NCBI GenBank assembly: GCA_049967655.1
Contig: JBMFSH010000002.1
Span: 112,718-176,717 of the forward strand
Direction: 5' to 3'
Length of the DNA: 64,000 bases
Source of the DNA: Acidobacteriota bacterium
GTDB taxonomy: Bacteria; Acidobacteriota; UBA4820; DSQY01
Made by a program: the position numbers. Positions 33,001 through 36,000 of this stretch are shown one piece after another. The first letter of the stretch is position 1; every line of letters begins with the position of its first letter.

Positions 33001-36000
33001 CTGAACCCTGCCGTGCACGTACCAGGCCGCCGAACGCCACTGCTCGTCCATGGCACGATTGTAGGATCCCGCCTTACGAGGAGGCAACGGCACGCCGCCT
33101 TTCCCGGTCGGTGGAGTGATATAATGTCTCTGGGAGGTCCAGTACCGTGCGGAATCGGCTCTTTGCCTTCATCCTACTGGTGATCTTCGCCATGCTGCTC
33201 TCCTCCTGCGGACGAAAGGGGGATCCGAGCCCCAGGCGGGACCTGCACCGCCAGGTGAACCCGCCCTCACCCGCCGCTCCGCCGGACAACCCTTCCCATG
33301 GCTGAGGACCTCGAGTTCTACAAGATCACGGGAGCCGGCAACGACTTCATCGTGGGCGACAACCGCCACGGGCGGTGGGCTGCTCATCCCCTCGAACGGC
33401 TCTCCCGAGGGCTGTGCCGCCGCGCTCTGTCGGTGGGCGCGGACGGCTTGATCCTCATCGAGAACTCCAACCGTGCCCGCTTCCGGATCCGGATCTTCAA
33501 CAGCGACGGCACGCAGACTCGCATGTGCGGGAACGGCGCCCGCTGCGCGGCCCGGTTCGCCTTTCTCAAAGTCATCGCCGGCCGCCAAATGACCATGGAG
33601 ACTCCATCGGGCGTCCTGGAGGCCGAAATTCTCTCTAACGGAGCCGTTCGCGTGGAGATCCCGGGCTTGGCGGAGAACCCTCGCAGGCTGGAGATCACCG
33701 GCGGCGGGCGGCGAATCCCTTGCCTCTTGACCCACACGGGCGTCCCTCACGCCGTGGTGTTCGTGAAAGACGTGGAGAAGGTCCCGGTGGCGAACCTGGG
33801 AGCGATGCTTCGACGGGCCCCCGAATTGGGCGCCGAGGGCGCCAACGTGGACTTCGTTTCCGTTGAAGGCGGCCCTCCCTTCCCCTTGCGGACCTTCGAG
33901 CGGGGAGTGGAGGGCGAGACGCTGGCCTGCGGCACGGGCGTCACTGCGGCGGCCTGGGTCCTGCGGCACCTCGGCAAAGCTGGGGACCGGGTGGAGATGA
34001 GGGTTCGCTCGGGCCAGGTGCTCGTCGTGGAGATCGACCCATCCAGGGTGGGCAAGCCCCTGTTCCGGCTCACCGGGGAGGCGCGCGTGGTCTACCGGGG
34101 CTACCTCTCGCAAGAATCCCTCTTGGAGGCGCTGGCATGACGTTCGGACGGGTGTTCTGGCTCGGGCGTGAACTGGACGTGACGCGGGACGAGGGAGGTA
34201 GGGTCTGGACGGTGGATCACCGGGAGGTGCCGCTCTCCGAGGCCGAACTTCTGGCGCCCGTGGTTCCAAGCAAGATCGTGTGCGTCGGCCGCAACTACCG
34301 CGAGCACGCCAAGGAGCTGGGCAATCCGATGCCCGCGGAGCCCCTTCTCTTTCTCAAGGCCCCCTCATCGGTCCTCGCACCCAACGGGACCATCGAACTC
34401 CCTCCCGAGTCCGGCCAGGTGGAATACGAAGGCGAGATAGCCCTGGTCATGGCCCGCGCCTGCCGGAGGCTTGGCCCCCAGGAGGACCCCCTGGCCTACG
34501 TCGCGGGAGTGACCCCATTGAACGACGTCACCGCCAGAGACCTCCAGAAGAGGGACGTGCAGTTCACCCGGGCGAAATCCTTCGACACCTTCTGCCCCTT
34601 CGGCCCGTGGGTGGTGCCCATCGGTGATCCGCAGGAGCTCTCGGTCCGGACCACCCTCAACGGGGCCGTGGTTCAGGAGGGGTGGGCGCGGGACATGGCT
34701 TTCCCCATTCCTTTCTTGATCCGCGCGATCTCCCAGGTGATGACGCTGTTTCCGGGCGACGTGATCGCCACCGGAACTCCCTCGGGAGTCGGCAGGCTGG
34801 CCCCGCGGGATCGGATCTGCGTGGAGGTCGCCGGTGTCCGTCTGGAGAACGTCGTGGGGGAGTGAGCCATTATGCGCGACAGAACCGACCCCCACGGCAC
34901 CACCGACCCATACGCCCATCTCCAGGCTCTCGCGGACGCCTGCGATTGCGCCGTCCTCGCCTGCCTGGGTGACGGGAAGGTCGCGGCCGCCAACGGCGAG
35001 GCGGAGAGGCTTCTGGGTTGGACCCGACACGAGCTGATCGGCCGCCGCCTAGCCTCGGAACTGGCTCTCCTGGCGGAGGAGCCTTCCCACCCGGGCGGCA
35101 CCGCCGCCCCTACCGAGGAGCGCCTCCCGCTGAAGCTGAGAGACGGGAGCCGCAGGATCTTCTCGGTCCGAATCGCCTCCCTGCCCCCGAGGGCCCCGGG
35201 AGACTCGGCCACGCTCTGGATCGGCCTTCGGGATCCCGACACGGCGGGGTTGAAGGAGCGGTTGCGGGACCTCAACGGCCAGCTCGGCGTCTTTCTGGAC
35301 CACGCAACGGACGTGATCTTCCGGCTGGATGCCCGCGGGCGCCTGACCTTCGCCAATCCGGCCGCACGAACCGTCCTCGGCCATGAGCCGGCACAGTGGA
35401 TAGGACGTGAGCTTGAGCTCGCGCAGTTTCTCCCCCCCGAGGAAATCGACCGACTCAATCTGGGCGGGGCCGTCCGGCTTTTTCGGGAGGGATTCAAGAA
35501 CCGCCTCCTCCGGGTTCGTCGGAAGGACGGGAGCACCTTCTGGGGGCTTCTCACCCTGGCTCCCACGCGCTATAGAAACCGCCGCTCCCTTCTGGGCGTA
35601 CTCCGGGACGTCAGCGAGTTCTACCAGACCCGGGAGGCCCTCGTGCAGCAGCACTTGGAGCTCCAGCAGACGGTCGCCCAGCTCGAGGAGGCGGGCCGCC
35701 TCCAGGAGCAGTTCGTGGCGAACATCACTCACGAGCTGCGCACGCCGGTCACGGCGATCCTCATGGCCTGCGAGCTCCTCCAGCGGGATGCCCGCGAACT
35801 TTCGAGGGACCAGGAGGTACGCCACCTCGCCCTCATTCACCGAAACGCCACCACCCTCCTGGGCACCATCAACGGCCTGCTGGATCTGGCCAAGCTCAAG
35901 AGAAACGCCTTCCTGCCCAGGCCCCGTCCCTTTCCGCTGCGAGCCTTCCTCGAAGGGGTGACCGAGGAGGTGGAACCGCTCTTCGTGCAGAAGGGGCTGA

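Follow-up and report, generated by a model that had tools for sequence, protein, structure and literature searches.

Acidobacterial genomes that keep the last two enzymes for wall DAP and no recognizable known route of DAP synthesis

Results and discussion

The acidobacterial genome analysed here (G000, 99.3% complete) shares a gap with roughly half of the Acidobacteriota genomes in the sample: it encodes the predicted last two enzymes for wall DAP, DapF and a DAP-type MurE, and has no recognizable known pathway for DAP synthesis. The gap is real and phylum-wide, and its mechanism is testable. The explanation we favour, with a probability of about 0.5, is that L,L-lanthionine (or cystathionine) formed by a PLP enzyme is epimerized by DapF and ligated by MurE. 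Residue 3 of the stem peptide would then most likely be meso-lanthionine, with allo-cystathionine less likely.

The dapF locus

The window, the whole 64,000-nucleotide stretch of DNA that was analysed, contains the following genes:

33147..33305, + strand: gene for an lptM-like lipoprotein of 52 aa, which opens the unit (NF047847, 28.5 bits against a cut-off of 27.7)
33298..34140, + strand: dapF, DAP-epimerase family, 280 aa, Cys/Cys type (TIGR00652, 209.6 bits against a cut-off of 114.65)
34137..34865, + strand: FAH-family (fumarylacetoacetate-hydrolase) gene with sub-cut-off FAH-family matches, overlapping the dapF stop
5840..7246, - strand: Mpl-like murein tripeptide ligase (TIGR01081, 313 bits, below the cut-off of 388.7)

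Each of the first three genes overlaps the next, and the FAH-family gene is probably co-transcribed with dapF. The initial annotation had described an intact dapF behind lptM, in keeping with these model scores and with a dapF dN/dS of 0.07–0.09 against two close relatives (96–97% identical), a low ratio that indicates purifying selection. The lptM-dapF order is common to E. coli and this locus; the lipoprotein itself stands outside the amino-acid chemistry. Among 80 dapF loci from named genomes and 32 dapF neighbourhoods, the latter mostly from DapB-less Acidobacteriota, the recurring neighbours are lptM-like, xerC-hslVU, degP, pgsA and FAH genes, a FAH-family gene being near dapF in 7 of the 32 neighbourhoods, the window counted among them. 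No recurring sulfur or amino-acid enzyme was found beside dapF in either set, which argues against a thioether substrate. A claimed Mpl recycling ligase stands in part: the gene is present 26 kb from dapF and scores higher with TIGR01081 than with the MurC model, but it stays under the TIGR01081 cut-off. The dcw cluster on contig C13 contains the gene for the true MurC.

The DAP pathway in this genome

DAP-synthesis genes that were not found, DapF and MurE with predicted DAP-type sites and a separate lysine operon characterize this genome. Canonical DAP pathways (succinylase, acetylase, DapL and Ddh) share with it DapF, a DNPR-type MurE, aspartate kinase and Asd, but they need DapA and DapB, and genome searches found neither an over-cut-off DapA nor dapB, dapD, DapH, DapL of either type, Ddh or lysA. 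The reported lack of dapB is thus upheld: DapB_C has no match, and the single over-cut-off DapB_N match is, as we read its sequence, a GAPDH-like protein. The sole DHDPS-family gene is a fragment on a 1009-base contig (C122). It had been placed below cut-off, which is correct for the DapA model (153 against 206) but not for the Pfam DHDPS model, where it lies over cut-off (167.8 bits). Since the tetranucleotide score of C122 lies in the lowest 1.3% of 1850 1-kb windows and 0 of 4 same-family genomes have a DHDPS-family gene, the fragment is probably foreign.

LysW/aminoadipate genes can supply lysine, so that DAP would be needed for the wall only. The operon on contig C8 comprises lysW, homocitrate synthase, lysX, lysY, lysZ and lysJ, and homoaconitase/dehydrogenase-like genes are located on C44. 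LysX (333 against 276) and the ArgC/LysY and ArgD-family proteins are over cut-off, LysZ is just below it (215.5 against 223) and homocitrate synthase clearly below (309 against 414). The same lysW, homocitrate synthase and lysX/Y/Z/J genes make up the pathway of Thermus and Deinococcus, whose walls use ornithine. In a control search these genera lacked DapF, whereas this genome keeps DapF and a DAP-type MurE; its LysW, read in frame, ends in Gln rather than Glu, and the operon has an EgtC-like gene instead of lysK. Contig C29 carries a metY-metX-lysC-asd operon, in which aspartate kinase (lysC) and asd accompany metY and a metX-like gene, while homoserine dehydrogenase, homoserine kinase (ThrB) and ThrC were not found in the genome by blastp. 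The sulfur enzymes include CysE, CysK (C2), a CBS-like protein of 327 aa without a regulatory domain (C61) and two methionine-gamma-lyase-like enzymes (C39 and C3).

Distribution across Acidobacteriota

Of 251 Acidobacteriota genomes at least 90% complete (tallies that take in the unpublished G023, G048 and G145), 120 gave no DapB_C match, among them all 19 others of this genome's family; on a larger sample, this agrees with the earlier estimate that the gap recurs in about half of the sampled Acidobacteriota. A DapF match at E ≤ 0.001 was obtained for 116 of the 119 remaining DapB-less and 130 of the 131 DapB-bearing genomes (over cut-off in 227 of all 251), and MurE was over cut-off in 48/48 and 5/5 DapB-less genomes tested; these and the counts below are sample counts, in which related genomes are not independent. 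Further searches covered 80 of the 120 DapB-less genomes, picked for family spread, with G064 included in the DHDPS/DapA and LysA counts and replaced by G000 later. DapA was over cut-off in 4 of these 80, plant-type DapL in 1, full DapH in 3, LysX in 16 and LysA in 24, the last of which a thioether model does not account for. A DHDPS-family gene was not found in 43 of the 80, nor aspartate kinase in 37, of which 36 have DapF. The concern that a divergent DapA or DapB had escaped the models is therefore ruled out for the genomes in which one or the other gene was not found, and hidden enzymes are not the general answer.

Outside the phylum, where Gemmatimonadota was considered as a second lineage, two of three genomes of that group and the single Fermentibacteria-type genome tested had a DapA over cut-off; the Gemmatimonas wall is reportedly DAP-free, a point for which our literature search gave no confirmation. 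The literature search, mostly without subscription journals and without supplements, found no description of the DAP gap in Acidobacteriota or Chloracidobacterium, of lanthionine synthases beyond Fusobacterium or of a phosphohomoserine DAP route.

Active sites of DapF and MurE

In agreement with the initial annotation, the window DapF has both catalytic cysteines (equivalents of C73 and C217, E. coli numbering). It keeps the equivalents of N64, N190, E208 and R209, has Gly at the Q44 position and has Val at the N157 position, as do 8 of 8 DapFs of dapA-linked operons in other phyla. We take N64, N157, N190, E208 and R209 to be residues of the distal site; part of these roles is given for the C. 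glutamicum enzyme (PMC11602996). All 80 acidobacterial DapFs aligned keep N64, N190, E208 and R209 and have Gly at position 44. Purified Gly-type DapFs are reported to turn over lanthionine as fast as DAP, whereas the Gln44 enzyme is slow (PMC12039745). Against a thioether substrate, Gly44 is also found in 32/32 DapB-bearing acidobacterial DapFs. Moreover, no alignment column separates the DapFs of DapB-bearing (32) and DapB-less (45) genomes, and both Cys/Cys and Ser/Ser types occur in the two groups.

The MurE encoded on C13 clears the models for meso-DAP ligases (NF001126, 490 against a cut-off of 373) and contains the motifs DNPR, GGDRD and GKGHE, the first as previously noted. DNPR is present in 34 of the 35 MurE sequences inspected in other DapB-less genomes, the remaining one being unreadable. 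According to published work, a MurE of the DNPR type accepts L,L-DAP at <1% and refuses Lys and Orn (PMC3681970), the Anabaena enzyme uses meso-lanthionine as well as DAP, and cystathionine is a weak substrate of plant MurEs (PMC12681378). Together, the site properties of DapF and MurE suggest that the cells make an L,L-diamino diacid and convert it to the meso form for MurE. We propose that the window DapF carries out this epimerization and that lanthionine is its most likely substrate.

A thioether in place of meso-DAP

The pathway that we favour would start with a PLP replacement enzyme that forms L,L-lanthionine from cysteine and either a second cysteine or a serine; the short CBS-like protein (C61), CysK (C2) and the two methionine-gamma-lyase-like enzymes (C39, C3) are the candidates. 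DapF would convert the product to the meso form, as its active-site residues and published in vitro data on other DapFs suggest, after which the DNPR-type MurE would ligate it and Mpl would recycle the tripeptide. Such a role would keep dapF under selection despite there being no source of L,L-DAP. Furthermore, if the synthase were a side activity of common enzymes, this would explain both the repeated loss of dapA and dapB and the lack of a gene that tracks it.

CysK/CBS-type genes are found in 246 of 251 genomes and in 34 of the 37 DapB-less genomes without aspartate kinase; they are near-universal, and their presence therefore proves little. In G105 (1.9 Mb) a short CBS-like gene encodes the sole PLP enzyme of fold type II. 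Five DapB-less genomes had no CysK/CBS-type match at E ≤ 1e-30; in four of them, searched again, no CysK/CBS-like protein was found among the PALP loci read, and, of those checked, two have only a Cys/Met-metabolism enzyme. As the initial annotation had stated, the CBS-like candidate does not track dapB loss: its clade (at least 56% identity to C61) is found in 50 of 119 DapB-less and 18 of 131 DapB-bearing genomes, enriched but not universal, and it also occurs in a DapB-bearing family that has a complete dap operon (15 genomes). The C3 methionine-gamma-lyase-like enzyme was likewise rejected as a tracking gene, with matches in 22/22 genomes of the same order and sporadic ones elsewhere. A comparison of 369 proteins shared with G105 (~61% of that genome, 1.15 of 1.91 Mb, covered; 148 proteins scanned with Pfam and the others by eye from an incomplete list) gave no new candidate. 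LysW-derived DAP was discarded on account of the scarcity of LysX, and LysA working in reverse, a thermodynamically unfavourable reaction, on account of the limited distribution of LysA and its absence from this genome.

To our knowledge, lanthionine walls are known only from Fusobacterium. In F. nucleatum the CysK-like synthase CysK1/FN1220 makes meso-lanthionine directly from L- and D-cysteine (PMC9600241, PMC11602996) and is reported to be essential unless lanthionine is supplied (PMC9600241). This bacterium and G000 have in common a Gram-negative wall, no DAP pathway, a retained DapF-fold gene and a fold-type-II PLP enzyme that could in principle form lanthionine. However, the synthase of F. 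nucleatum is known and essential and its DapF-like protein is a histidine racemase, whereas G000 has a DAP-type DapF site and candidate synthases; the acidobacterial pattern also spans about half of the phylum sample. When G000 was searched for an FN1220-type synthase, CysK and the short CBS-like protein were present, the latter scoring 276 bits with CBS structures and only 181 bits with 5xem, which we take to be the Fusobacterium lanthionine synthase. On the reading we favour, the wall of G000 would work like the lanthionine wall of Fusobacterium. A further parallel is E. coli engineered to have lanthionine/cystathionine walls (Richaud 1993 and Mengin-Lecreulx 1994, as cited in PMC12039745, PMC12681378). 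Common to these strains and our proposal is that DapF epimerizes L,L-lanthionine and MurE takes the meso form, but the strains are laboratory constructs, whereas in G000 DapF would have this role naturally and under selection.

Chloracidobacterium as a cultured test case

Genome G152 (two contigs, 99% complete) has an FMO gene, and since Chloracidobacterium is described as the sole chlorophototrophic genus of Acidobacteriota (PMC8245765), we assign G152 to it. DHDPS, DapB, DapH, DapL, Ddh and LysX were not found in this genome, which has DapF, a DNPR MurE, LysA and two CysK/CBS-type enzymes. C. thermophilum is reported to require lysine and to have grown axenically after three transfers in a medium in which Ile, Leu, Val and Lys were the only nitrogen source, with no DAP in the medium described (PMC4376005). 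A second species of the genus is alike in growth, and TEM reveals its peptidoglycan layer (PMC12816986). Thus, DAP need not be scavenged in this genus, the link between G152 and the cultures being one of genus and the lineage being distant from G000. Moreover, home-made DAP together with LysA should have relieved the need for lysine, which argues against a de novo DAP route in Chloracidobacterium.

Alternative explanations

The initial annotation had offered scavenging, an unknown DAP route or another diamino acid such as lanthionine; of these, scavenging does not hold in general, an unknown route is plausible for 3 of the 120 DapB-less genomes, and lanthionine is the best fit for the rest, although unproven. 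Scavenging, which we consider unlikely, would mean that DAP or DAP-containing wall fragments are taken from neighbours through an AmpG-like importer and Mpl, that DapF converts L,L-DAP and that surplus DAP becomes lysine through LysA in the genomes that keep it. G000 does have Mpl-like and AmpG-like genes, both below cut-off, some DapB-less genomes keep LysA, and the low count of LysX suggests that most of them are probably amino-acid scavengers anyway. Against this, Chloracidobacterium passes three transfers in DAP-free defined medium although G152 has the gap (PMC4376005). In addition, the near-constant retention of DapF is not accounted for, because the DAP available for scavenging is mostly meso. 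Equally doubtful for G000 is true DAP made by related carbon-carbon chemistry instead of lanthionine, for example a gamma-replacement on activated homoserine giving tetrahydrodipicolinate, followed by a class I aminotransferase and DapF, without DapA or DapB. The fully DAP-type sites of DapF and MurE, the metY-metX-lysC-asd operon and class I aminotransferases of G000, and a dapB-free operon in G194, G203, G212 and metagenome loci, which suggests that DapB can be bypassed, would all suit such a route. However, that operon is absent from G000, which has no homoserine dehydrogenase or kinase by blastp; many DapB-less genomes are without aspartate kinase; and Chloracidobacterium needs lysine although G152 has LysA. 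Six genomes hold both LysA and LysX, as expected if home-made DAP does not feed LysA, but LysX may serve arginine and one of the six, G195, probably has an assembly gap.

It is also conceivable, but improbable, that DapF is kept for another job, racemizing a different amino acid or acting as a non-catalytic partner, as in the E. coli DapF-RppH pair, while MurE adds lysine or ornithine. There is a precedent in the annotated DapF of Fusobacterium, which is the histidine racemase HisR, its pocket described as lacking a basic residue (PMC11602996), and a model exists for a bifunctional DapF/glutamate racemase. Yet R209 and N190 are invariant in the acidobacterial enzymes, and the presence of this arginine indicates that the window DapF is not of the HisR kind; going by molecule names, no HisR entry is found among its 17 structure matches. 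The bifunctional assignment (NF038284) was rejected at 153 against a cut-off of 350, and MurI (238 against 147) and Alr are both present, so that DapF is not required for D-glutamate. Furthermore, a DNPR MurE refuses Lys and Orn (PMC3681970), and the Thermus and Deinococcus controls have LysX and no DapF. Least probable by far is an artefact of incomplete assemblies or of divergent dapA and dapB missed by the models. Most genomes are indeed fragmented, and in G195, where dapA at a contig end is followed by dapD, dapB is probably unassembled. However, near-complete G000 and all 19 of its family members lack a DapB_C match, and the near-closed one- and two-contig genomes G004, G152, G172, G175 and G017 show the gap, which largely refutes an artefact; the dap models match in 11–13 of 14 control genomes.

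A dapB-free DAP operon in a minority of genomes

Three DapB-less genomes (G194, G203 and G212; 92–95% complete), in which neither dapB nor aspartate kinase was found, carry an operon for a DapA variant, homoserine kinase, DapH, an M20 deacylase and a class I aminotransferase. The variant has the substitutions T44V, Y107L and Y133H and keeps K161 and R138, all five presumably functional positions, whereas ordinary acidobacterial DapAs keep Thr and Tyr at the substituted sites. The sequences of 80 related metagenome loci gave His133 in 74 cases and Val44 in 72. Where the downstream DNA is long enough, homoserine kinase follows the variant dapA in 37 of 47 loci, and DapH, M20 and the aminotransferase follow in 25 of 28; dapB was found in 0 of the 80, 15 of which have long flanks on both sides. 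One metagenome locus has the variant DapA with LysA and a DapL-like gene; in another its companions are homoserine dehydrogenase and an aldehyde ferredoxin oxidoreductase. Tetrahydrodipicolinate equals pyruvate plus O-phosphohomoserine in number of carbons and in oxidation level, which would make a reductase unnecessary. It may be, at somewhat less than even odds, that the variant DapA joins the two compounds directly into tetrahydrodipicolinate in these three genomes and so bypasses DapB. Acidobacteriota may thus hold one or more undescribed DapB-bypassing routes to the wall cross-linker; the boldest form of this reading, and a doubtful one, is that G000 also reaches true DAP by related carbon-carbon chemistry.

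Implications

As far as we know, meso-DAP is regarded as near-universal in Gram-negative walls. If the lanthionine pathway favoured here is true, thioether walls would be built by about half of the organisms sampled from a phylum that is dominant in soils and sediments, the natural role of DapF in them would be that of a lanthionine epimerase, and DAP-based biomass markers as well as genome annotations would need correction for these organisms. If instead the wall holds DAP, it must be made by a new route, for which the dapB-free operon offers a first candidate enzyme. Because a cultured genus with the same gap grows in defined medium, the question is directly testable.

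Variation and exceptions in DapF

In many acidobacterial DapFs (loci L127-L176 and L305-L344), both catalytic cysteines are replaced by serine, and these Ser/Ser proteins occur alike in genomes with and without a DapB_C match (DapB-bearing and DapB-less, respectively). A mixed Cys/Ser pair is found in G012 and G029. In family f31 (e.g. G035; L302, L303), a full dap operon is present, the sole DapF-like match of most members is very divergent (E 1e-14 to 1e-29), and the genomes also carry the short CBS-like gene of the type found on contig C61. G014 and G214, DapB-less and 100% complete by markers, yielded no DapF match despite having MurE and LysA, and are exceptions to the retention of DapF in DapB-less genomes.

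Gene surroundings in the window

Window 32667-33093: tRNA-Arg(CCT) and acylphosphatase gene, divergent from lptM-dapF
Window 36477-37262: NUDIX-like gene, 2.3 kb downstream of lptM-dapF
Window about 7400-9430 (+): RnfC/PduS-like oxidoreductase gene, adjoining mpl, then a microcompartment-shell-like gene (putative identities, from reading of the sequence)

The NUDIX-like gene, which has no NCBIfam match, stays near dapF within the order.

Related pathways in this genome

Contig C29, 18914-23748 (L115): metY-metX-lysC-asd operon
Contig C3, 98945-100276 (L118): methionine-gamma-lyase-like gene
Contig C8, about 62230-68136 (L113): LysW/aminoadipate operon

Whole-genome blastp found no homoserine dehydrogenase, ThrB or ThrC. 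The methionine-gamma-lyase-like subfamily has a match in 22/22 same-order genomes and is sporadic outside the order. The only DHDPS-family gene lies on C122, a contig of 1009 bases with atypical composition that is probably foreign to the genome.

LysW ends in Gln, not Glu, here and in G010 (L468) and G211 (L470); in G012 and G220 the terminal residue is Glu. The LysW/aminoadipate operon of the three Gln-type genomes includes a gene for an EgtC-like class II amidotransferase, and no lysK was seen there. This enzyme may replace LysK in cleaving the gamma-glutamyl bond and may also deamidate the terminal Gln of LysW.

A DAP operon without dapB

L287:1572-6263: dapB-free DAP operon, G194
L285:17224-19719: dapB-free DAP operon, G203
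L286:2438-7352: dapB-free DAP operon, G212
L549:1579-7799: metY-like, homoserine dehydrogenase, aldehyde ferredoxin oxidoreductase, DapA variant and homoserine kinase genes in a row

The operons of G194, G203 and G212 encode a DapA variant (substitutions T44V, Y107L and Y133H), homoserine kinase, DapH, an M20 deacylase and an aminotransferase; dapB was found in none of 80 related loci (L472-L551). The operon is a candidate for making tetrahydrodipicolinate directly from pyruvate and O-phosphohomoserine, and the gene row of L549 possibly represents a kinase-free entry from aspartate.
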